Virus genome (UHGV): UHGV-0211441 | DNA: 35,609 bases | Origin: a virus | Reading direction: 5' to 3' (one strand) | Part shown: positions 1,269 to 35,308 of the stretch, one piece after another | Layout: the number at the start of each line of letters is the position of its first letter | How positions within the stretch are numbered: position 1 is the stretch's first letter | Notes under the pieces: generated by a model | Told to the model about the DNA's origin: nothing | Seen by the model: only the letters and a program-made list of their open reading frames with translations | The model's database searches: none | Translations under genes and position numbers: made by a program

Positions 1269-2492
1269 TTAAATTTCAATGTTTGGTACGCCGCCTAATG
1301 CGCCAGTAATGTATTTAGAGTAAAGATTGTCTTGACTTCTCAAGCCTTGGATTTCATCAAGTCTCCAAGCTTCACTAACGCTATCATTTTTTTCAACCAA
1401 GTAAATGTTATGTTTATTTACGTATTTAAGTATTTCTGCAGTGTGGCAGCTAAATATTAGTTGTGAAGAATGCTGGTTGATACCCTCATTTGCGAACATA
1501 TCAAGTAATTCGCGAATCATATAAGGATGGAGGTCGCTATCTAGTTCGTCAATAACAGCAACTCCACCAAAATGTAATGCAGATATTAATTTATAAATAA
1601 AATAGAAGCATGCTTGAGTTCCAGTGGACTCCATGATGAAAGGGATTTTAAATGTTTCACCATTATGCTCATGTACGCCATAGGGCATAAACTTCTGCTC
1701 TAACTCTCCTGTCTTTTTATCCATGATTTCATCTTCTTTTATTATTATATCTTTTAGGCCAAAATCCATTCTTGTTAAGTATTTTTTTGCCTTTTCAAAT
1801 AACTCAGGCTCATGGTGGTAATATTCTGCTGCACTCAAGACTTTACCATAATTAAAGTTTGATTTTCCAAATACATTTAAATTATTCTCAATGCTATAGA
1901 AAATGTAATGCATTGCACCGGCTGTTATATTATCATCTTTCCTTCTGAAGTATGATATAGCTGATGCATTTTTAGGCACAGTTCTTAGTTCTGATACAGG
2001 GAAGTCATTTGTGTTACTTTTTACTTTATATTCATTTGTGGTTGCATCATATTTTCTATAAAAAATAGATGAGAATAAACGGCTTGATTTGTATTTTAGC
2101 TCTTCATGTAATACCGTTTTTTTGTCGAGTTTCAAAAAATATTTAAATTCGACATGATTCATTTCGCCATCAATGAGCCTGCTATCAACAAAGCAAATCT
2201 CAATTTCCGAAGGTTCATCCATATTGCAAATGTGTGGATACATAGGCAGTGATTCGGAATTATCCATTGATTTAAATGATTCACTGCAAAACCAGCTTAA
2301 AAAAGCCAGTGGTTTAAGCATATTTGATTTGCCAGAACCATTAGCACCCATTACGGCTAATACTTTAGTTATCCTCGTATCCACCCATTGTTTGTCCAGT
2401 GACGACTCTGAAGAGTTTGCCTTAAGAGTGAGATCTACGAGCTGCTCGTCTTTGAACGAGTGGAAGTTTTTGAAGCGATACCATTTTATCAT
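1269..2492 (-). CDS. AAA_21/ABC-type ATPase (OLD/AbiL/PARIS AriA-like abortive-infection ATPase)
   Basis: 407 aa. Walker A GANGSGKSN; Walker B/D-loop VAVIDELDSDLHP. N-terminus MIKWYRFKNFHSF and C-terminus ...YITGALGGVP match the usual ends of AAA_21 defence ATPases. Low-GC gene. Confidence 0.8.
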   Translation of the reverse strand: MIKWYRFKNFHSFKDEQLVDLTLKANSSESSLDKQWVDTRITKVLAVMGANGSGKSNMLKPLAFLSWFCSESFKSMDNSESLPMYPHICNMDEPSEIEICFVDSRLIDGEMNHVEFKYFLKLDKKTVLHEELKYKSSRLFSSIFYRKYDATTNEYKVKSNTNDFPVSELRTVPKNASAISYFRRKDDNITAGAMHYIFYSIENNLNVFGKSNFNYGKVLSAAEYYHHEPELFEKAKKYLTRMDFGLKDIIIKEDEIMDKKTGELEQKFMPYGVHEHNGETFKIPFIMESTGTQACFYFIYKLISALHFGGVAVIDELDSDLHPYMIRELLDMFANEGINQHSSQLIFSCHTAEILKYVNKHNIYLVEKNDSVSEAWRLDEIQGLRSQDNLYSKYITGALGGVPNIEI

Positions 2493-2603
2493 ATTGGGCC
2501 CGTTTAGACTTTTTTTTGTTTAACTGGCTCTACTATTGCAGGTGAAATGATGTTTGTCCATCCCGATTCGTGCGAAAAACAATCGCTTGTGGAGCGTTTC
2601 TGT

Positions 2604-6863: not shown

Positions 6864-7698
6864 ACACTTATTCATGAACGCCGAGCAGGGCGCCGAAGCG
6901 CCAGCAGGCAGCACAGGGGGCAATGATGGTGGCAATGGCGGTGGTGCTGAAAATCCGGGCGCTGATAATCCTGCTGGTATTTCACTTCTCAGCACCGGCG
7001 CAGGTGAACCGGGCGCGAATGACTGGATACCTGAAAAATACCGCGTTATGGGCGAAGGTGGAAAACTCGACATTGAAGGCTCTGCCCGCAAACTGGCGGA
7101 TGCTCATACGTCGCTTGAAAAGCGCCTTGGCAGCGTCGGCACGCCGCCAAAAACTGCTGATGACTACGCCCCAGAGGTAAAGGCCGAAGGCTTTAACTGG
7201 GAAGAATTCAAAGCTGACCCGCGCATGCAGTCGTTTATGAAATCGGCACACGGCAAGGGGATCACCAACGACCAGATGAGTTTCATCATCAGCGAGTATG
7301 CGCAAATCGCCCCGTCGCTGGTTAACGGTGCAGCGGAACTGGATGCTGAATCCGCTACCACGCAGCTGCGCGAAGTCTGGAAGACTGACGCCGAATTTAA
7401 CAAGAATATCGGCCTGGCCTTCCGCGCGTTCAATTCCCTGACCGATGAAGGCGATCGCGGCCGCATCGATGAAATCGGAAATAACCCGATGGTGATCCGC
7501 ATGCTGGCGAAAATCGGCGCGGAAATGCAGGAGGATGCACCAGCGGGCGCCGACAGCAACCCGGCAGAGCAGCAGACCATCCGCGACCTGATGAAGTCCG
7601 AAGCGTACATGAATCCGAAGCATACCGACCATGAACGTGTATCTGCACAGGTGAAAGCGTACTACCAGAAGCGTTACGGTGATCAAACCGTAGCGTGA
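6850..7698 (+). CDS. Scaffolding protein (T7 gp9-like)
   Basis: 282-aa acidic protein between portal and capsid, with a Gly/Asn-rich N-terminus. Confidence 0.6.
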   Translation: MWKIKHLFMNAEQGAEAPAGSTGGNDGGNGGGAENPGADNPAGISLLSTGAGEPGANDWIPEKYRVMGEGGKLDIEGSARKLADAHTSLEKRLGSVGTPPKTADDYAPEVKAEGFNWEEFKADPRMQSFMKSAHGKGITNDQMSFIISEYAQIAPSLVNGAAELDAESATTQLREVWKTDAEFNKNIGLAFRAFNSLTDEGDRGRIDEIGNNPMVIRMLAKIGAEMQEDAPAGADSNPAEQQTIRDLMKSEAYMNPKHTDHERVSAQVKAYYQKRYGDQTVA

Positions 7699-7731
7699 CA
7701 TGTCACGACAACTTAACCCGAGGAAAGACCA

Positions 7732-7896
7732 ATGAGCGACAAGAATCAACCTTTGAATCTTGAACAGCAGGAATTCATTTTCCGAACCAAAGCGGAATTA
7801 TTGGCCGAGCTTATTAAATTCCAAATCCCCGGTAAATCCGAAGCGGAAGAACTGGCAGAAGTGGTCAATGCCGCATTCGATAAATTAACGGCTTAA
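7732..7896 (+). CDS. Small hypothetical protein (54 aa), first gene of a two-gene moron-like cassette
   Basis: Start preceded by the conserved cassette CGAGGAAAGACCAATG. Not in the supplied ORF track because it is under 60 aa. Confidence 0.45.
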   Translation: MSDKNQPLNLEQQEFIFRTKAELLAELIKFQIPGKSEAEELAEVVNAAFDKLTA

Positions 7897-7911
7897 TTCG
7901 AGGAAAGACCA

Positions 7912-8181
7912 ATGAGTGAAGCAAAACCGCAAGATGGCAGCACCGTGAAAGGCTATAGAAAATTAAGCGACGCAGAAATCGCAGCAATGAATCGCCTAAA
8001 AGAACTGAGTCGCAATTTTATTCGCGAGTTGCGAAATATTCAGTTGGATTTGTTACCGCAGGATCCAGTTCTCTCTGATCGCACTGCTGCTTACCGTAGT
8101 GCCGCGTTGGCGACCACAAAAATGCAGGAAGCCTGTATGTGGGGATGCCGTGCGGTAGCCCGCCCGGATGGAGACTGCTAA
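7912..8181 (+). CDS. Small hypothetical protein (89 aa), second moron gene; candidate anti-defence or host-interaction factor
   Basis: Same CGAGGAAAGACCAATG cassette. Followed by its own intrinsic terminator, and inserted between the scaffold and capsid genes. Confidence 0.55.
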   Translation: MSEAKPQDGSTVKGYRKLSDAEIAAMNRLKELSRNFIRELRNIQLDLLPQDPVLSDRTAAYRSAALATTKMQEACMWGCRAVARPDGDC

Positions 8182-26301: not shown

Positions 26302-26533
26302 CGAATATAGCTCCAAAATCAGGTTCGTCATTTTCGTGCGTTATCTCTTCCTTCTGGCCGCGGTACTTGATCGGGTTCAGGAAGTGGCCCCATGTGGTTT
26401 TAGGGTGGCCATCTGCTCTTTCCATGAAGAAGATGCCGGCCCGGCGCAGCGCCTCACATTGTTTTGATTTAAGTGGCGTCCCCGTCAGCTCGATCATTTC
26501 CTCTCTGGTTATGATGTCGTGATCGTGTCTCAT
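26270..26533 (-). CDS. Excisionase (lambda Xis-like winged helix)
   Basis: 87 aa. ITREEMIELTG...QCEALRRAGIFFMERADGHPKTTW parallels the lambda Xis winged-helix pattern (lambda Xis sequence quoted from memory). Overlaps the int start by ~30 nt. Uses the GAGGAAAGACCATG cassette. Confidence 0.6.
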   Translation of the reverse strand: MRHDHDIITREEMIELTGTPLKSKQCEALRRAGIFFMERADGHPKTTWGHFLNPIKYRGQKEEITHENDEPDFGAIFDGRKAKESCR

Positions 26534-26693
26534 GGTCTTTCCTCAGCATGCCGGCTATAGCGTTGTCTGCTGTATCGCAAGCGCGCTGGATATCGGACTG
26601 GGTCAGAGTCCTCTTTCTAACGCTGGCTGATAGCCTGCCAATTTTGATATCGAATTCTGAAAGTAAAACTACACCTGGTTGCCAACGTAGCAT
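26469..26693 (-). CDS. Hypothetical small protein (74 aa), overlaps xis 5' end in another frame
   Basis: ATG with GGAG at -10. The 64-nt overlap with xis makes it uncertain. Confidence 0.25.
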   Translation of the reverse strand: MLRWQPGVVLLSEFDIKIGRLSASVRKRTLTQSDIQRACDTADNAIAGMLRKDHETRSRHHNQRGNDRADGDAT

Positions 26694-27496: not shown

Positions 27497-29640
27497 TATG
27501 CTTTCTCCTCGGCTTTATTCAGTTCTTTGATGCGTCCGTCTTTAATCGTTATGAGTCGGCGCAAGCGGCCAGACAGATAGCGTTCATGTTGTGCGTCACC
27601 GTTGGCCTGTGCGGCCTTAATGTGAACATCGATTTCACGTGCGATAGGGGAGAACACGCCGTTTATTTCGTTCACTGTCACGCCATGTGCCAGGGTGTTA
27701 GCAACACGGCTAAGTTTGTCGTCAAACTCCTGGCGAAGACGTGCAGCGTCCTCTGCGGTTTCGCTGGCATTCTTCAGATCAAACTCTGCCTTGTTTTTCT
27801 GGCGGTATTCCAGATTGTCGTAAAGGCCCATGAAGATATCGCCACTGAAGCCGAGGCCAGATAAAGCCTTTTTGGTTGCATCAGTCAGCGATTTTTTTGT
27901 TGCCTCACCATCGCAGGTAATACCGTACTTACTGCCGTAAATGTATGGCGTGCAACCGTAGGCCGTTTCCTCGCCGCGCACACCATTCAGGATGTACCAG
28001 AGTCGCACGGTAACGACGTGATGCTGCTCGTTGACGGTATTTCCATTCCCGTCGAGCACTAACTCCCATGACGCATTGTTATCTTTCCCTTTCACCTGGC
28101 GTGTAATGGGGGCGCCGATATCGAAACGTTCCTCGAGGATGTCCACACCCCAGCCGATTCCCTTTGGCCCAAACTCGCGAGTGGCAAGCATGGTTAAATA
28201 GGTACCGTTGATCGAGGTACCGCCGCCGTTCTGCGTAAAGGCTTTAGTAAACCGTTCATCAGTTTTGAATACACGTTTCCACAGTTCTAAATTATCCTGT
28301 CCGATACTCTGCGCGCCGGCAGACTTCATTACTTCTTCAGCGTCAGGCAGTCTTTCAGCATGAATAATTTGCTTTGCCAGCACCTCGGCGTTATCAGCTA
28401 TTGTTTCCGCTTTAGTGCTTAACTTCTCTACTGGCTGTTCTGCATCACCAGAGGCATATACGCCATAGCCCATATCGTTGAGCGTCTCACGCGCCTGTTT
28501 GGCCTGGGTATCGGTTACCACCGGCTGTGGTGCTTCCGCTTTTTCGACCACGTTTGACGCGGTATTTTGCGTTGCCTCTGGTTGTTTAACGGATCCTTTC
28601 TCGGTTTCGTCAAAGCGGCCGTTTGCTTCCAGCCATGAATCAATGTGGCGGCGTAGGCTGTCAGGGAAATGGTAGGTATCTTTTGCCGGTACGTTCTGCA
28701 CTACACCAAAAATACTGTCTCGGTCATATTTGAGAATGTGCTCCGTGGTGCGAAGCGCCATTGACCAACGTTTAAAATCTTCGCGCTCGTCTGCAATGAT
28801 TTTCTCAGCATCGCGAAGGTTGCCTGATAATACTGGCGCGTCGGGAGAAATAGGGAGTAGGGCGACAGCGATCTCCTGATCCAGTGTTGCATAGGTATGT
28901 TTATAACCACGTTTTGGCGCGATTTTTACGTTGGTATCAGTGCTGGCGGCGCCGAGTGAGGAATTTTGGCCTGGTACCATTTCTTCACGTTTACCGGGAT
29001 TCTCAAGCCAGCGTTTTACAAATTGAGAAATAGCCGCTTTGCCCGGAGTCTGGTTTTCAAAATGGGAGAAAATGCCCTGAATAAGATTATTCAGCCCTTC
29101 AACATGCATGTGCTTAACTGGTTCGTTATTGTGCAGAGCACACAGAACGTTAAGGTTAAAACGATCTTCTTCTTCCAGTTCGGTATCACGGTTATTCAGG
29201 TTATCCAGATAATCCACAACCTGAGAATAGATATGGCCGTCAATCTGAGCGGTGCTAAACAGCAGAACGGCTGCAAAGCGTTCACCTGGGGAAACGGTCA
29301 TTAAATCGATAACATCATCGTCAGCGGGTAAATTTGATTCCTCACCGGCGGTGCCGTTCGCGGCAATGGAAACCCATTTTTCACCGTCGAAAGTATGTTG
29401 CTGGGCGAATAGCTCGTCGAACTGGCCAACGGTCGGCAGCGGCTGGCCTTCTTCGTGTTCCCACAGCTTCGGTTTAAAATAGTTGTCACCGTTCGCCGGG
29501 TAAGATTCCCAGAGTTTGCCGGTGATAATGCTTTCGGCGATTTTCTTGTTTGGTGCTTCGACGGCGATCGCCAGCTGCACGGCGCCGCAGTCTTTGATAG
29601 CCGATTTTTTTGGTTCGAATAAGCCGTTGTAGATGGTCAT
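27496..29640 (-). CDS. Single-strand annealing protein with C-terminal Rad52/Sak-like domain and ~400-aa N-terminal extension of unknown function
   Basis: 714 aa. The C-terminal region ...GEATKKSLTDATKKALSGLGFSGDIFMG parallels the Rad52 motif ...VTDGLKRALRSFGNALGN. Starts with the CGAGGAAAGACCAATG cassette. Confidence 0.6.
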   Translation of the reverse strand: MTIYNGLFEPKKSAIKDCGAVQLAIAVEAPNKKIAESIITGKLWESYPANGDNYFKPKLWEHEEGQPLPTVGQFDELFAQQHTFDGEKWVSIAANGTAGEESNLPADDDVIDLMTVSPGERFAAVLLFSTAQIDGHIYSQVVDYLDNLNNRDTELEEEDRFNLNVLCALHNNEPVKHMHVEGLNNLIQGIFSHFENQTPGKAAISQFVKRWLENPGKREEMVPGQNSSLGAASTDTNVKIAPKRGYKHTYATLDQEIAVALLPISPDAPVLSGNLRDAEKIIADEREDFKRWSMALRTTEHILKYDRDSIFGVVQNVPAKDTYHFPDSLRRHIDSWLEANGRFDETEKGSVKQPEATQNTASNVVEKAEAPQPVVTDTQAKQARETLNDMGYGVYASGDAEQPVEKLSTKAETIADNAEVLAKQIIHAERLPDAEEVMKSAGAQSIGQDNLELWKRVFKTDERFTKAFTQNGGGTSINGTYLTMLATREFGPKGIGWGVDILEERFDIGAPITRQVKGKDNNASWELVLDGNGNTVNEQHHVVTVRLWYILNGVRGEETAYGCTPYIYGSKYGITCDGEATKKSLTDATKKALSGLGFSGDIFMGLYDNLEYRQKNKAEFDLKNASETAEDAARLRQEFDDKLSRVANTLAHGVTVNEINGVFSPIAREIDVHIKAAQANGDAQHERYLSGRLRRLITIKDGRIKELNKAEEKA

Positions 29641-29672
29641 TGGTCTTTCCTCGTTTGTAACTAATTCGCTGG

Positions 29673-29957
29673 TTAGGCATCTTGTTTAATTTCAGGGAGC
29701 AGTCCAGCGATCACGCGTTCTGCCGTTTTTTTTGCTTCTTCCAACTGTTCTAGTTCGCGTTCGAGATGAACCTTTTGGCTTTCTGCCAGTTCTTTAATTT
29801 CTGATGAATCGACTTTGAGATAGCTCTCGCCGTTTCTACCTTCCGCTAAAATCCCGGAGGAGCGGCATTCGTTACTGCAAATATTGATAATTCTGTTTGC
29901 GCGATCTAAGCGGTCTTTAATTTCGCGAATTCTTTCAAGCAATTTTCTAATATCCAT
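29673..29957 (-). CDS. Hypothetical coiled-coil protein (94 aa), early-left operon
   Basis: Start at MDIRKLL with the GAGGAAAGACCATG cassette. The tool ORF is extended 13 codons upstream. Confidence 0.5.
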   Translation of the reverse strand: MDIRKLLERIREIKDRLDRANRIINICSNECRSSGILAEGRNGESYLKVDSSEIKELAESQKVHLERELEQLEEAKKTAERVIAGLLPEIKQDA

Positions 29958-30000
29958 GGTCTTTCCTCTTGGTTGCAGGCGCAGGTCACGCGCCACTTAA

Positions 30001-30324
30001 TTAAAACGGTACGTCGTTTTCTTCAATCGGAGAGTGGTCGATGCACAGCAGCTGCTGGATCTTGTCATCGACCGCGGCGATTTGTCTTTTCGCATCGGCT
30101 GCAATGATTTCTTTCTGGGCGCGCAGTTGGTCAACCTGCAATGCGATAATGTCGAAAGGCTCTGGTTGATTTACTTCGATATTTATTTCGCGTGTTTCCA
30201 GCAATACGTAAGCATCAGGATAGTTTTGTGACATGTCACAAGTAAAAATCATGAACTTTTCAGATGAAAACGTGTTGGTTGTGTAGTGGATGTATAGCTT
30301 TACGGGGATGGTAAGCGCTTCCAT
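30001..30324 (-). CDS. Hypothetical protein (107 aa), first substantial gene of the leftward operon
   Basis: Start at MEALTIPVKL with an AAGGAG SD sequence. The tool ORF is extended upstream. Confidence 0.5.
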   Translation of the reverse strand: MEALTIPVKLYIHYTTNTFSSEKFMIFTCDMSQNYPDAYVLLETREINIEVNQPEPFDIIALQVDQLRAQKEIIAADAKRQIAAVDDKIQQLLCIDHSPIEENDVPF

Positions 30325-30540
30325 AGCGACTCCTTGGTGATGTATACTCAGAGCCGATCGGCGACTCTGTCGTTGGTCTTTCCTCGCTACAGGGTTGGTC
30401 CCCTGTAGCACTCCTGGCGGATTGGTCTCCGCTGGGGTAAATCAGCCCACTCCGGTGGGCTTTTTTACGCCTGAAGGTTGCCGGTCTTTCCCGGCTGTCA
30501 GGATGGTCAGTCCCATTGGTCTTTCCTCGTTACCGTGTGA

Positions 30541-30566
30541 AAAAAATGCCCCGGGCGCCGGGGCCA
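30541..30566 (-). terminator. Rho-independent terminator in the pL leader (GCCCCGG-CGC-CCGGGGC + UUUUUUU on the leftward transcript)
   Basis: Seen directly on the minus strand. Confidence 0.7.
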
Positions 30567-30744
30567 AGACTACACACAGCAATTCACATTCGTTGCGGTC
30601 TTTCCCGCATGTCATCGTACTGTCGGCGACCCGAAGAATTCTTGCCCGTCTTTCCGGACTGTCAGAACTGTTTCTGAACAACTGCCGCGTGGTTAGTGCG
30701 TCGTTGATGTGATGGAGCTTAACCAAAGGTAAGTTGCTGGTCAA

Positions 30745-30812
30745 CGCAATTTACTTAAAAAATGTTAAGCTTGAAAGGGTGCGATTATAACTAAATGAAT
30801 TGTATGGTTATT
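30745..30812 (-). promoter_or_regulatory. pL-like leftward early promoter region with operator CTTA-N8-TAAG (30754..30769)
   Basis: Minus-strand candidates: TTCAAG-N16-TAAATT with the operator in the spacer, or TATAAT at 30784..30789. The 16-bp dyad CTTAAAAAATGTTAAG has the same half-sites as the pR operator. Confidence 0.4.
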
Positions 30813-31209
30813 TTTTTTGTGATTTTTTTCTTGTTGCTAAGAGCTCTTCAAATAGCTTGTTAAAGCCTTCAACGCGAGACTCCAATTCAGTCAAATGTCT
30901 ATCTTTTTCAGATTCGGGAAGTGAATCAAATAGATCCAGAAGTTTTAACTGGCGAGCATCTAATTCTTTTGGCAATTCTTCAACGGGGAGGGGGGATTGA
31001 TCTTCGTCGCCGTATAAGAGCCAGGTAGGGGAACACTTGAGAGCTTTACTCAATTTGAACAGGTTTTGCCCTCTAGGTTCTGTCTCACCGTTTTCCCATT
31101 TGAAAATTGTGACGTGCGAAACCTTCACAGCATCGGCCAGCTTTTGCTGTGACATATCGAGTTCTGTTCTTCTGCGACGAATACGGTCGTTTAGCTCTGC
31201 GTTTTTCAT
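30808..31209 (-). CDS. cI-like repressor, XRE-family HTH, no S24 peptidase domain
   Basis: 133 aa. HTH QQKLADAVKVSHVTIFKWENGE. C-terminal coiled coil. Essentially leaderless start, like lambda cI from pRM. Confidence 0.8.
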   Translation of the reverse strand: MKNAELNDRIRRRRTELDMSQQKLADAVKVSHVTIFKWENGETEPRGQNLFKLSKALKCSPTWLLYGDEDQSPLPVEELPKELDARQLKLLDLFDSLPESEKDRHLTELESRVEGFNKLFEELLATRKKSQKK

Positions 31210-31228
31210 GGGGTTAATGTAAATTAAT

Positions 31229-31255
31229 TTGACTTAGCTTTTGTTAAGTTATAAT
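31229..31255 (+). promoter_or_regulatory. pR-like promoter TTGACT-N15-TATAAT with dyad operator ACTTAGCTTTTGTTAAGT (31232..31249) in the spacer
   Basis: Near-consensus hexamers seen directly, but the 15-bp spacer is short. Drives cro, whose GTG start has an AAGGAGG SD sequence. Confidence 0.55.
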
Positions 31256-31287
31256 TTCCAAACAAACGTTAACGAAGGAGGTACCCA

Positions 31288-31482
31288 GTGCTAACCGAAG
31301 ATGCAGTTAAGTATTTTGGCAGTAAGGCCAAATTGGCGAAGGCACTCGATGTCTCGCAACCAGCTGTTTCACGTTGGGGAACGATGATCCCTGAAAAGAG
31401 GGCTGCTCGTTTGTCACTGATGACTGATGGTGTTCTGGTCTATGACCCGAAGGCTTACCAACTGCCAGCTAAATCAGCTTAA
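31288..31482 (+). CDS. Cro-like repressor (YdaS/Cro HTH family)
   Basis: 64 aa. KLAKALDVSQPAVSRWG HTH. Divergent from cI. Confidence 0.75.
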   Translation: MLTEDAVKYFGSKAKLAKALDVSQPAVSRWGTMIPEKRAARLSLMTDGVLVYDPKAYQLPAKSA

Positions 31483-31500
31483 CAATCCGCGTGATCTAAA

Positions 31501-31518
31501 TCTGATTACGCTTAATCA
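31501..31518. repeat. 18-bp dyad element TCTGATTACGCTTAATCA, copy B (between cro and the CII-like gene, the nutR/tR1-equivalent position)
   Basis: Identical to copy A at 26748. Confidence 0.8.
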
Positions 31519-31542
31519 ATTTTCAGCGACAGGAGACGCGAA

Positions 31543-31989
31543 GTGGAGAACCTCGAGGAACTGAAACGAGAGATATTCAGCTGGGCAGCTGAAAGCGGGC
31601 AGGAGCTGGTTGCTATCGAGATAAGCCGTATGTGGTTTCGTCTCGGTGGTAACACCGGTGTGCTGAAGCTGCACCAGATTGAAGATGCAGATGGAAATGC
31701 AGACTGGCGGGCCATCAACAATAACCGCCAACAGATTTTTCGCTGGCTGCGTGGTGAGACGAAAGCGGCCAGAACTAAAACCCAGACGCTGGCTAAAGCG
31801 ATGGAAGCGGCATTGCCGGCAGAACGCTACGCGCGCCTGGACATGTCCACCCAGTATTTGATCTGCGTCGCCATACGCGAGTTTGCGGCGGCCATTATCG
31901 CGTTATTGCTCGAGGCCAGAGACGGCCCGCAGCAAGTCGCGAAGGCATTGCAAGCGATGCGAGAAACACAGCGCCTGACCAGCGTTTAA
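31543..31989 (+). CDS. CII/YdaT-like regulator candidate
   Basis: 148 aa, GTG start with AGGAG. Its position after cro mirrors ydaS-ydaT/cro-cII pairs. Similarity is judged from memory only. Confidence 0.4.
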   Translation: MENLEELKREIFSWAAESGQELVAIEISRMWFRLGGNTGVLKLHQIEDADGNADWRAINNNRQQIFRWLRGETKAARTKTQTLAKAMEAALPAERYARLDMSTQYLICVAIREFAAAIIALLLEARDGPQQVAKALQAMRETQRLTSV

Positions 31990-32011
31990 CCTGTACCGAG
32001 GAAAGACCAAC

Positions 32012-32230
32012 ATGCAGACAACTACAGACCGTATCACCTGGCGGAACGGCTTCCGCCTGAATGGTGAGCCTGCCTTCATGTGTGACGTGCAGGAGATTTT
32101 CGAAGAACGTCTCACTGCCAAAAAATGGGAACTCTACGAACTGCGCAAAGCCGAGCTGCGGGAAGAGAACCTCACGCCTAAAGAATACGAAAACGCCTGC
32201 CGCCAGCTGGCCGATATGCTGGGGATCTGA
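32012..32230 (+). CDS. Hypothetical small protein (72 aa)
   Basis: CGAGGAAAGACCAACATG cassette. Confidence 0.5.
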   Translation: MQTTTDRITWRNGFRLNGEPAFMCDVQEIFEERLTAKKWELYELRKAELREENLTPKEYENACRQLADMLGI

Positions 32231-34601: not shown

Positions 34602-34639
34602 CCGCGCCTGACCAGCGCGATATAACCGAGGAAAGACCA

Positions 34640-35308
34640 ATGACCACAAATTTAAATTACCCAAAACCAGTTAATCCGGATGATGGCTGCAACTGGTTAC
34701 CCGTTATTTTATGGCGCATGAACGCCGGCGCCCGCGCGCGTAGTCGTTCTGTATTTGTTGCCGCACCGCGACCAGAACCAGTGCCGGGGATTACTCCGCA
34801 AAAGCCAATTAAACGCGAAGCGCCGCTGCCAGCAGTTTCAGGCCGTCGCCGTAAAACCCATCTCGGTACCGTGATTTATTCCAAAGGCGAAAAAACCGTG
34901 CGCCTGAGCGAAGGTGTCACCGTCTGGTCTGCCGGCGCTAATGAGCATTTCGACAAAAAGACCGGTCAGCGTGTCGGCGGTGCTGGCCGTCATCGCCTGG
35001 TACTCGACAGCGTTCGTCCACTGCTTGCCAGCGACGATCAACCGGGCGCCGGGAAAGTTACCGCGCAGCAGCTGGTTGCCGTGATGAAAGGTAAAACTCT
35101 TTCTTATCAGACCATTCTCGCCCAGCTACAGAAACACTATCCAGAATGCCAGGTAACGATTAAAGAAATTCAGGATCGCGTATTCAGCATGTTCAATTCG
35201 AATTATGTCGGTATCACTCGGCATGACGATACGCCGGTAGTTCATTTCACGCTTAACAGCGTGGATCCCCGTTATTACGTCGAGTCAGCGAAAAACAAGA
35301 GGGTTTAA
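34640..35308 (+). CDS. Hypothetical protein (222 aa), nin-like region
   Basis: CGAGGAAAGACCAATG cassette. No family recognised. Confidence 0.5.
   Translation: MTTNLNYPKPVNPDDGCNWLPVILWRMNAGARARSRSVFVAAPRPEPVPGITPQKPIKREAPLPAVSGRRRKTHLGTVIYSKGEKTVRLSEGVTVWSAGANEHFDKKTGQRVGGAGRHRLVLDSVRPLLASDDQPGAGKVTAQQLVAVMKGKTLSYQTILAQLQKHYPECQVTIKEIQDRVFSMFNSNYVGITRHDDTPVVHFTLNSVDPRYYVESAKNKRV

Follow-up and report, generated by a model that had tools for sequence, protein, structure and literature searches.

The window analyzed here is a stretch of 35,609 nucleotides (nt) from the virus genome UHGV-0211441, and our subject is the leader that separates its early-left promoter, pL, from the first early-left gene, which starts at 30324. 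On balance, we favor a view of this leader as two opposed small-RNA units rather than as an attenuator governed by an upstream open reading frame (uORF). One unit would be a short pL transcript that ends at a strong intrinsic terminator behind a sequence shared with the RprA RNA of Escherichia coli; the other would be a convergent small RNA (sRNA) of about 113 nt, whose seed is complementary to a cassette, GGAAAGACC, that recurs in the leader and directly before gene starts. A first-pass annotation of the same DNA had expected antitermination or attenuation, by a mechanism either RNA-based or coupled to translation. Regulation of the early-left leader is probably RNA-based, and the observations that speak to it are structures, their assignment to one strand, complementarity, co-occurrence and positional conservation.

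From strand-specific G.U pairs, compensatory base pairs, a plus-strand terminator and a conserved -10 box, we conclude that a putative gene for a rightward sRNA of about 113 nt occupies 30353..30467 (+). In the predicted fold of this RNA, a 5' hairpin (30356..30378) is followed by a single-stranded UUUCCUC (30379..30385), by two hairpins that each display the loop UUGGUC (HP2, 30386..30409, and HP3, 30412..30437) and by a terminator hairpin (30444..30461) with a run of six U. The last of these hairpins had been taken for a second terminator of the leftward transcript. The hairpin is real, and its T6 run is on the plus strand as already noted then; since the U-run exists on that strand only, it is not a terminator for pL. 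A terminator scan likewise calls it on the plus strand alone, and the leftward transcript continues with UGAUUUACC after the hairpin.

The same strand preference is seen in the pairing itself. Read on the leader strand, the UUGGUC loops become GACCAA, and the 16 distinct variants of these GACCAA-loop hairpins contain nine internal positions that depart from Watson-Crick pairing; on the leader strand every one of them is C.A and none is G.U, so that all nine read as G.U on the plus strand. The GAAAGA hairpins that lie upstream of the terminator display the opposite pattern (four G.U and no C.A on the leader strand). When the plus strand was aligned from the conserved TATACT to the T-run in 18 distinct sequences, one of them from a Serratia prophage, RNAalifold recovered the 5' hairpin, the two UUGGUC-loop hairpins and the terminator, and 17 of the 31 pairs were compensatory. 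Alignment cells were paired in 97.8% of cases, compared to 86.5% in shuffles (reached in 0 of 500) and to at most 56% in slid controls, and the whole plus-strand structure holds 103 G.U against 3 A.C cells. For the window RNA (30353..30467), the minimum free energy (MFE) is -59.8 kcal/mol (z = -6.36).

A covariance model built from the 18-sequence alignment was searched against 47 sources bearing the sRNA (44 viral loci, two related prophages and the window). It returned one full-length match per locus, that of the window scoring 122 bits at 30353..30468 (+), and no match in 38 lambdoid loci of other groups. A second alignment of 31 distinct, mostly new sequences was paired at 96.6%, again with 31 pairs, 19 of them compensatory, and the signature of the sRNA occurs in at least 120 viral contigs. 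The candidate promoter consists of a -10 box, TATACT (30343..30348, +), with a poor -35 element, and this box overlaps the 5' untranslated region (UTR) of the first early-left gene. It is kept in 66 of 67 distinct variants, as TATACT in 49 and TATAAT in 17, at 25-48 nt upstream of the seed core; several lineages carry TGaTATAAT, an extended -10. The T-run after the last hairpin is retained in 66 of 67 distinct variants as well. Searches of Rfam with both strands of 29500..32200 gave no match to the C4 family at E <= 10 and no match to put, for which we did not check that Rfam holds a model. Weak matches to rsmX, isrB and isrD were set aside because they reflect a generic hairpin-plus-terminator shape only, and no Rfam family other than a sub-threshold RprA fits either strand.

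The seed of the predicted sRNA, GUCGUUGGUCUUUCCUCG (30369..30386, +), is the complement of the cassette copy at 30375..30383. A cassette-complementary 11-mer, UGGUCUUUCCU, is invariant in 18 of 18 aligned sequences, Serratia included, and constitutes the only long invariant stretch of the RNA. The seed can pair over 12-18 bp with the region from the Shine-Dalgarno (SD) sequence to the start codon of seven genes, with a single G.U at the U of AUG, and these seven start regions rank 1, 3-7 and 11 by duplex energy among 385 candidates. On the minus strand, the predicted targets are the start region CGAGGAAAGACCAAUGAC (29638..29653) of a gene for a 714-amino-acid exonuclease, with 18 bp including one G.U at -32.6 kcal/mol; the cassette and ATG (26531..26545) of a DUF4224, excisionase-like gene at -30.1 kcal/mol; and, by complementarity, a 94-amino-acid gene (29955..29994), where the hairpin GGCGC-GUGACCU-GCGCC (29978..29994) precedes cassette and ATG. 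On the plus strand, the best-ranked of all candidates, at -38.6 kcal/mol, is a 72-amino-acid early-right gene with the hairpin AGCGC-CUGACCA-GCGUU, cassette and ATG at 31970..32014, and a 222-amino-acid gene downstream of the helicase gene has the same order of elements at 34603..34642 (hairpin CGCGC-CUGACCA-GCGCG; -32.2 kcal/mol). Complementarity also singles out the cassettes and ATGs of genes for 54 and 89 amino acids (7719..7734 and 7899..7914, +), which are flanked by the major head gene and by a 282-amino-acid gene that weakly matches a protease (phrog_458, E = 2.4e-9). Given the cassettes before these two genes (7690..7914), the cassette regulon would extend beyond the early operons into the structural genes. 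Apart from the seed, the UUGGUC loops of the sRNA complement the GACCA of the CUGACCA hairpin loops, which stand 10-15 nt upstream of several cassettes.

The cassette is no chance repeat of the window. At one mismatch or fewer, GGAAAGACC has 23 matches, compared to 6.2 +/- 2.6 in shuffles, none of 100 of which reached 23, which corresponds to an enrichment of about four-fold. The 11 exact copies all share the orientation of the genes around them; seven, of the form (C)GAGGAAAGACC(A)AUG, directly precede real start codons, and an ATG within 0-4 nt likewise follows the majority of non-leader copies at related loci. Its distribution follows that of the sRNA: outside the leader, AGGAAAGACC occurs 273 times in 133 loci bearing the sRNA (1040 kb) and is absent from 86 lambdoid loci without it (899 kb).

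Within the leader, five minus-strand copies are found in 30360..30680, four exact (30375, 30483, 30518 and 30597) and one with a mismatch (30647), where about six had been counted. As reported then, some lack a start codon. They are not degenerate SD sites: three are hexaloops, and a fourth (30375) lies inside the predicted structured RNA gene on the opposite strand. The hexaloops, GAAAGA, belong to the copies 30647, 30597 and 30483 and are closed by an invariant G-C pair on stems of 4-5 bp, of which more than 12 variants keep their pairing and include G.U pairs on the leader strand. Hairpin B1 (GUCCG-GAAAGA-CGGGC, 30644..30659, -) displays GGAAAGAC, and its stem covaries through GUCUG/CAGGC, GCCCG/CGGGC, GCCG/CGGC and GCUCG/CGAGC, with G.U on the leader strand. 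B2 (UGCGG-GAAAGA-CCGCA, 30594..30609, -) displays GGAAAGACC and has stem variants that include UGCGG/CUGCA and GAGG/CUUC. B3 (GCCGG-GAAAGA-CCGGC, 30480..30495, -) emerged from the search for invariant-loop hairpins and from covariation, and in distant relatives its stem carries another loop, AAACGUAA. Two more hairpin classes have invariant loops, CUGACCA and GACCAA, on stems that differ wholly between relatives. Hairpin A (UGGGA-CUGACCA-UCCUG, 30499..30515, -) is of the former class, with seven distinct stem variants, all Watson-Crick, and a loop complementary to UGGUC of the sRNA loops. Counting stems of at least 4 bp, the window holds nine invariant-loop hairpins compared to 1.07 +/- 1.0 in shuffles; all are co-oriented with transcription; six belong to the leader, and the other three immediately precede cassettes at gene junctions. 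Relatives carry one to two units of cassette, CUGACCA hairpin and GAAAGA hairpin per leader, and their leaders measure 525-1600 nt.

The second unit faces the first. The pL transcript is predicted to end at the first terminator after about 168 nt (30541..30709, -) and to fold, in order, into a 5' hairpin, a CAGAA/UUCUG hairpin, B1, B2, an RprA-like single strand and the terminator (z = -6.14), an arrangement that is nearly invariant in 18 distinct short-type relatives. The terminator (30540..30564, -), GCCCCGG-CGC-CCGGGGC followed by A and U7, has a stem of seven G-C pairs (30564..30548) with compensatory changes in relatives, which bears out its earlier description as a strong intrinsic terminator. 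Directly before it, the core GAAUUGCUGUGUGUAGUCUU (30566..30585, -) is identical to E. coli K-12 rprA at 20 of 20 nt, so that the window contains the conserved RprA 3' region, UUGCUGUGUGUAGUCUUUGCCC, followed by a Rho-independent terminator. The RprA model of Rfam, RF00034, aligns to the window end to end with 37.7 bits (E = 0.0019 in a search of 201 nt), places B2 on the second RprA hairpin and is the sole Rfam match on the leader strand; related prophages score 37-50.2 bits. RprA is known to exist also as a processed form of its last 47 nt, which coexists with the full-length RNA and suffices for one mode of narP repression (PMC9262595), and the conserved part of the phage module coincides with these 47 nt. 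RprA depends on Hfq, and the terminated pL RNA is itself probably an sRNA that binds Hfq.

The RprA-like module is widespread. An exact-pattern scan located its core in at least 120 viral contigs, and the 5' half of RprA was found in none of the viral contigs containing the core. A cI or helix-turn-helix (HTH) repressor open reading frame (ORF) on the same strand precedes the module by 225-1183 nt (median 518) at 95 of 100 distinct lambdoid loci, and in phage LLS the module also follows the repressor ORF. Within the family of the window, 88 of 115 distinct leaders have it. E. coli has 6094 places matching the RprA 3' end in 5424 genomes, about 670 more than there are genomes, and this surplus presumably represents extra copies besides rprA. 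Further matches to the RprA 3' core come from Erwinia phages of about 71-76 kb (Ea9-2, NC_023579, 22138..22181, and relatives), from Erwinia and Dickeya phages of about 255-267 kb (Dickeya JA13; NC_061448, 206796..206821), some spanning only 18-26 nt, and from Cronobacter phage phiES15, Escherichia phage Rac-SA53 and an Stx1c phage. In E. coli K-12 (1770372..1770971), rprA is followed by ydiL (DUF1870) on the same strand. Our literature searches found no description of phage-borne RprA-like elements.

Several additional features of the module were recorded. Immediately 5' of the core, the hexamer UGUGAA (30586..30591, -) is hypervariable, reading UACGAA, CAUCCA, UGCAAA, UGCGAA or UGCUAA in relatives whose leaders are otherwise identical over about 140 nt, and it resembles the variable 5' seeds of prophage anti-sRNAs. 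The ATG immediately followed by TGA, noted earlier in one cassette copy, is indeed present (30589..30584), but lies in this hexamer, which varies even among near-identical relatives. Just after U7, CACACGGUAA (30530..30539, -) is complementary to UUGCUGUGUG, a part of the core, and in the MFE fold the two form an outer helix of 10 bp around the terminator; this helix might therefore sequester the core in read-through RNA or, as a long helix, serve as a possible substrate of RNase III. ACACAG-like sequences after the terminator are shared by most family members and by the LLS group, although some groups lack them. Between B2 and the core, many related leaders have an insert of about 350 nt that is conserved and appears to be structured, with shared blocks such as GAGUGCGCUCCCGGUUGUGGUGAA and the T-arm-like hairpin CCGGUUCGAUUCCGG (loci L003, 2600..2900; L004-L008; L013, 2430..2740; and L135, 2500..2800, the last being phage LLS, which belongs to another family and has part of the insert). 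ARAGORN detected no tRNA or transfer-messenger RNA in this insert, and Rfam gave no match to it. A sigma-70-like site, CTGACA-16-AAGAAT (30665..30638, -), overlaps B1 and would start an RNA near 30639, where the Rfam alignment to RprA begins. We considered it as a separate start for an RprA-like RNA and rejected it, as its -10 is not conserved (GCGAAT, ACGAAT, CCAAAT); it is probably not a promoter. Pairing of the core itself with the cassette was likewise discarded, with only 5-7 bp possible and fewer in the window.

How the two units might work together can be outlined as follows, where expression of the RNAs, repression, titration and dependence on Hfq are all parts of the proposal. Transcription from pL, starting near 30708, would mostly stop at 30541 and yield the RNA of about 168 nt, whose last 45 nt or so copy the processed 3' part of RprA; the first terminator would thereby limit entry into the operon of exonuclease, xis and int. 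The convergent RNA of about 113 nt would repress translation of the cassette regulon, at least seven genes, in trans and the read-through pL mRNA in cis. Copy 30375 would act as the template of its seed, and the copies 30483, 30518, 30597 and 30647, three of them in loops, would be sRNA-complementary sites on the pL RNA, either targets or decoys. After induction, abundant pL transcripts would bind and titrate the sRNA. The first-pass annotation had suggested that start-less copies act as sinks for ribosomes or a regulator; a regulator sink is plausible, but the regulator that matches them is the antisense sRNA, not the ribosome or a protein. In its fullest form, which we put forward tentatively and with clearly less confidence than the presence of two sRNA units, the model describes an RNA-only circuit atop the protein repressor switch. 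Here, the sRNA would function as an "anti-ribosome-binding-site" and the pL leader, with its borrowed RprA/Hfq 3' module, as a dedicated sponge that releases the regulon on induction, and the RprA 3' module could be a widespread phage mimic of a host stress sRNA, ranging from lambdoid pL leaders to the jumbo phages of Erwinia and Dickeya.

A number of points weigh against this proposal. Both RNAs are predictions from sequence. The sRNA promoter of the window comprises only a -10 and a poor -35, a consensus promoter scan made no call there, and conservation of the A/U-rich stretch at the -10 could instead stem from a role in enhancing translation of the first gene. The predicted fold places some of the seed, GUCGUUGGUC, in base pairs of the 5' hairpin of the sRNA itself. 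We found no lineage-specific covariation between the flanks of the seed and those of the cassette, so the trans interaction draws on complementarity and co-occurrence only, and the co-occurrence could reflect the shared ancestry of one phage family. Outside the sRNA gene, the pL RNA offers four sites complementary to the seed, of roughly 17, 13, 11 and 8 bp as read from the duplexes; at the hairpin-loop sites of the leader, duplex energies with the sRNA were not better than those of mononucleotide shuffles, which makes titration by the leader speculative. Regarding the pL RNA, its RF00034 score is below the gathering score of 70 and by score falls short of RprA membership. Its predicted pairing with the rpoS leader reached -18.7 kcal/mol, compared to -17.9 +/- 2.6 kcal/mol for shuffles, when RprA itself, the positive control, gave -23.0 against -13.0 +/- 2.4 kcal/mol (nt 33-63). 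The module is missing from 27 of the 115 distinct leaders, including relatives from E. whittamii and Serratia, and is therefore dispensable. Finally, the proposal does not account for how pL transcription passes the strong terminator.

Some of these points would be met if the rightward RNA were real and acted in cis only, in the manner of P22 sar or lambda OOP: it would pair with the read-through pL mRNA, leading to cleavage by RNase III or blocking the first gene. That it also matches the cassette at other genes would be incidental, the leader merely having a further copy of this repeated ribosome-binding element. We regard this as unlikely, though it is the best placed of the competing explanations. 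The sRNA gene and the pL leader overlap at 20-30 nt ahead of the SD sequence of the first gene, full complementarity of 113 bp in cis needs no further assumption, and both the sequestered part of the seed and the missing covariation of the flanks fit such an RNA. It does not explain why the 11-mer complementary to the cassette should be the only long invariant stretch that is single-stranded or at a hairpin edge, nor why both UUGGUC loops stay invariant under fully changed stems, which a purely cis-acting antisense RNA does not need. Likewise, hairpins with complementary loops precede cassettes at distant genes, and the cassette is restricted to phages that bear the sRNA.

It is less probable still that the hairpins with the invariant loops GAAAGA, CUGACCA and GACCAA are boxB-like sites for a phage RNA-binding protein, be it an antiterminator or a translational regulator, with the cassette as an element of protein recognition. 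The excess of such hairpins and their common orientation with transcription would agree with this, as would the strong terminator ahead of the operon and the short stems of 4-5 bp that covary under invariant purine-rich or CUAACC-like loops, which we take to resemble the boxB sites of lambda and phi21 (an assumption where the phi21 loop is concerned). However, the GACCAA-loop hairpins form on the strand complementary to the pL transcript, and all three loop types are complementary to a single RNA encoded in the same region. No protein partner came to light either. The first-pass annotation had seen no N-like, Arg-rich protein, and this holds: Pfam and PHROGs returned no antiterminator among the left-operon genes and the repressor, cro-like, YdaT-like, 72-, 222- and 77-amino-acid genes, a scan that left out the RepO-like and helicase genes and those past the end of the window. 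The sole Arg-rich ORF (29486..29680, -, 64 amino acids, Arg/Lys-rich) runs in a different frame across the 5' end of the exonuclease gene. It was considered as a candidate N and rejected as spurious because relatives have no start codon or ORF there. The leader does have conserved 5' hairpins, which might play a put-like role; put of phage HK022 is an antiterminator RNA of two stem-loops that acts in cis and lets polymerase resist the terminators beyond it. The boxA sequence YGCTCTTTA, allowing one mismatch, has 17 matches in the window compared to 14.8 expected, and none in 30324..30800. Together with the 23% of family leaders (the 27 of 115 noted above) that lack the first terminator module, the missing boxA speaks against the leader as a dedicated target of antitermination, as initially proposed.

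We consider it improbable that the start-less cassettes and hairpins are non-functional scars, that is, recombination junctions between phages at which gene loss has stacked empty units. The varying number of units (one or two) and the variable length of the leaders would be expected of such scars; so would the ORFs, or morons, inserted into the leaders of some relatives and the presence of the cassette-plus-hairpin unit at real gene junctions. The stems nevertheless covary under invariant loops and closing pairs, which indicates selection on the RNA. Conservation of the 3' leader portion extends even to a prophage of Serratia in which the product of the adjacent first gene shares just 56% identity, and neutral scars cannot generate a strand-specific asymmetry of G.U pairs.

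The original model, in which attenuation or antitermination depends on translation of a uORF whose stop codon lies at the second hairpin's base and start-less SD sequences serve as ribosome sinks, retains very little probability. In the window, the cassette at 30518..30526 is indeed followed by an ATG (30515) and a 24-codon ORF that ends at 30442 beside the hairpin (together 30442..30526, -), and about a third of related leaders (37 of 114 distinct ones) have an ATG at the equivalent cassette; yet the ATG is absent in 71, being ACG in an E. coli prophage 96% identical to the window and AAG in others, a further six have no cassette, length and frame of the ORF change with the copy number of the module, the presumed peptide region is under selection for RNA structure as judged by stem covariation, and the hairpin at the stop codon has no U-run on the leader strand.

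The window derives from a lambdoid temperate phage of the Rac/YdaS-YdaT type. A gene for an HTH repressor of 133 amino acids (30808..31209, -) and a P22-Cro-like gene (31288..31482, +) diverge, the latter being followed rightward by YdaT-like, RepO-like and helicase genes. Leftward, the genes encode products of 107 and 94 amino acids, the 714-amino-acid exonuclease, a Gp157-family protein, the DUF4224 excisionase-like protein and the integrase. The first early-left gene (30001..30324, -; 107 amino acids; phrog_2479, with no assigned function) has annotated homologues and matches a PHROG over its full length, which confirms the start at 30324 given earlier. Its 5' UTR (30322..30369, -) includes the hairpin CAGAGUC...GGCUCUG (30369..30349), with a U.G pair on the leader strand, the SD sequence AAGGAG (30335..30330) and the ATG (30324..30322). 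The predicted pL promoter (30716..30744, -) consists of a -35 TTGACC (30744..30739), a spacer of 17 nt and a -10 TAAGCT (30721..30716), and the geometry TTGACC-17-TAnnnT is kept in relatives with unrelated operators. Relatives become homologous exactly from (C)AUCAAC onward, 7 nt past the -10, and we therefore place the start of transcription near 30708-30710. An inverted-repeat search identified operator-like palindromes, ACTTA-N7/8-TAAGT, at 30717..30734 and 30753..30769, which match another one at 31232..31249 between the repressor and cro genes. Operators, promoter and gene order together identify the leader as the transcribed region downstream of the early-left promoter, and its initial description as an early-left leader with a strong promoter-proximal terminator before the first gene is supported.

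Of 5426 complete E. coli genomes, 454 contain a homologous leader, beneath which the listed genome records show no annotation. The only deposited phages with this leader are the Stenotrophomonas phages BUCT708 and BUCT709 (OM816834/OM816835), which are identical in length and, in the aligned parts of the immunity region, share about 86-89% identity with the window; as all other relatives of the leader that we found are enterobacterial prophages, the stated Stenotrophomonas host looks odd. In some relatives, small ORFs of 50-125 amino acids are inserted after the second 5' hairpin, in place of hairpin B1 (L005, 2021..2245; L007, 2652..3207; L014, about 2350..2505), so the leader also constitutes a moron insertion site.

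Small structured RNAs with an intrinsic terminator are known from in or beside the immunity region of several phages, such as P22 sar, lambda OOP, P1/P7 c4 and the CI RNA of P4. Similar to sar and OOP, the predicted sRNA is convergent with the mRNA it overlaps and has a terminator and a conserved structure. It shares with c4 and CI RNA the repeated loops complementary to repeated leader sites and the predicted block of ribosome binding, but differs in having at least seven dispersed targets with one SD/start cassette and in being antisense to the leader instead of processed from it. Like the nut sites recognized by lambda N, the early leader of the window carries short hairpins with invariant loops before the first gene; unlike them, it lacks boxA and an N-like protein, some of its hairpins are on the opposite strand, and a terminator lies upstream of the first gene.

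For the pL RNA, RprA (RF00034) is the closest comparison. The phage module has the 20 of 20 identical nt, the G+C hairpin, U7 and, in the end-to-end alignment, a hairpin with a GGAAA loop, but the 5' two thirds of the RNA are unrelated, pairing with rpoS is not predicted, and the element follows a phage early promoter, at a distance of some 70 nt or more from the inferred pL start. Short transcripts can also arise as by-products of operon control: for StxS, a strong terminator past the phage promoter is reported to give rise to a short, promoter-proximal RNA, as in lambda (PMC7547250). The terminated pL RNA is alike in this respect, whereas StxS originates from the late promoter pR', which is constitutive in lysogens and whose terminator is read through with the help of Q; the promoter of the window is the repressor-controlled early-left one, and no antiterminator is known for it. 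Anti-sRNAs of prophages in enterohemorrhagic E. coli, AgvB and AsxR, are associated with Hfq, occupy conserved lambdoid positions and combine a conserved 3' module with variable 5' parts (PMC4104026). The RprA-like module similarly appears with varied 5' parts in many contexts. AgvB and AsxR are, however, encoded downstream of pR' at a moron site and mimic mRNA targets, whereas the module in the window mimics an sRNA and is located downstream of pL.

The cassette also has a counterpart. In Cluster K mycobacteriophages, start-associated sequences (SAS) and extended SAS comprise an asymmetric SD-containing motif before many start codons, often preceded by an inverted repeat (PMC3203893). The cassette before the starts of seven genes in the window is similar in kind; host phylum and sequence differ, and so does the co-occurring gene for a complementary sRNA. 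We know of no matching regulator for SAS.

The predicted rightward antisense sRNA has not been described previously. If it regulates every cassette-bearing gene, the phage would provide a clear example of a regulon that is coordinated at the level of translation by a single small RNA and a ribosome-binding sequence common to its genes, and this would offer a testable explanation for the "start-associated sequences" of other phage families. Hundreds of prophages carry, right behind the early-left promoter, a copy of the active 3' portion of an sRNA with which the host responds to envelope stress, and it is possible that induction floods the cell with an RprA mimic or a competitor for Hfq. Possibly, rprA and the phage module are also of common origin, rprA stemming from a decayed prophage leader or the reverse. 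Given how common these elements are in E. coli genomes and viral contigs, they may influence how prophages excise, recombine and are induced in many strains of clinical or environmental origin.

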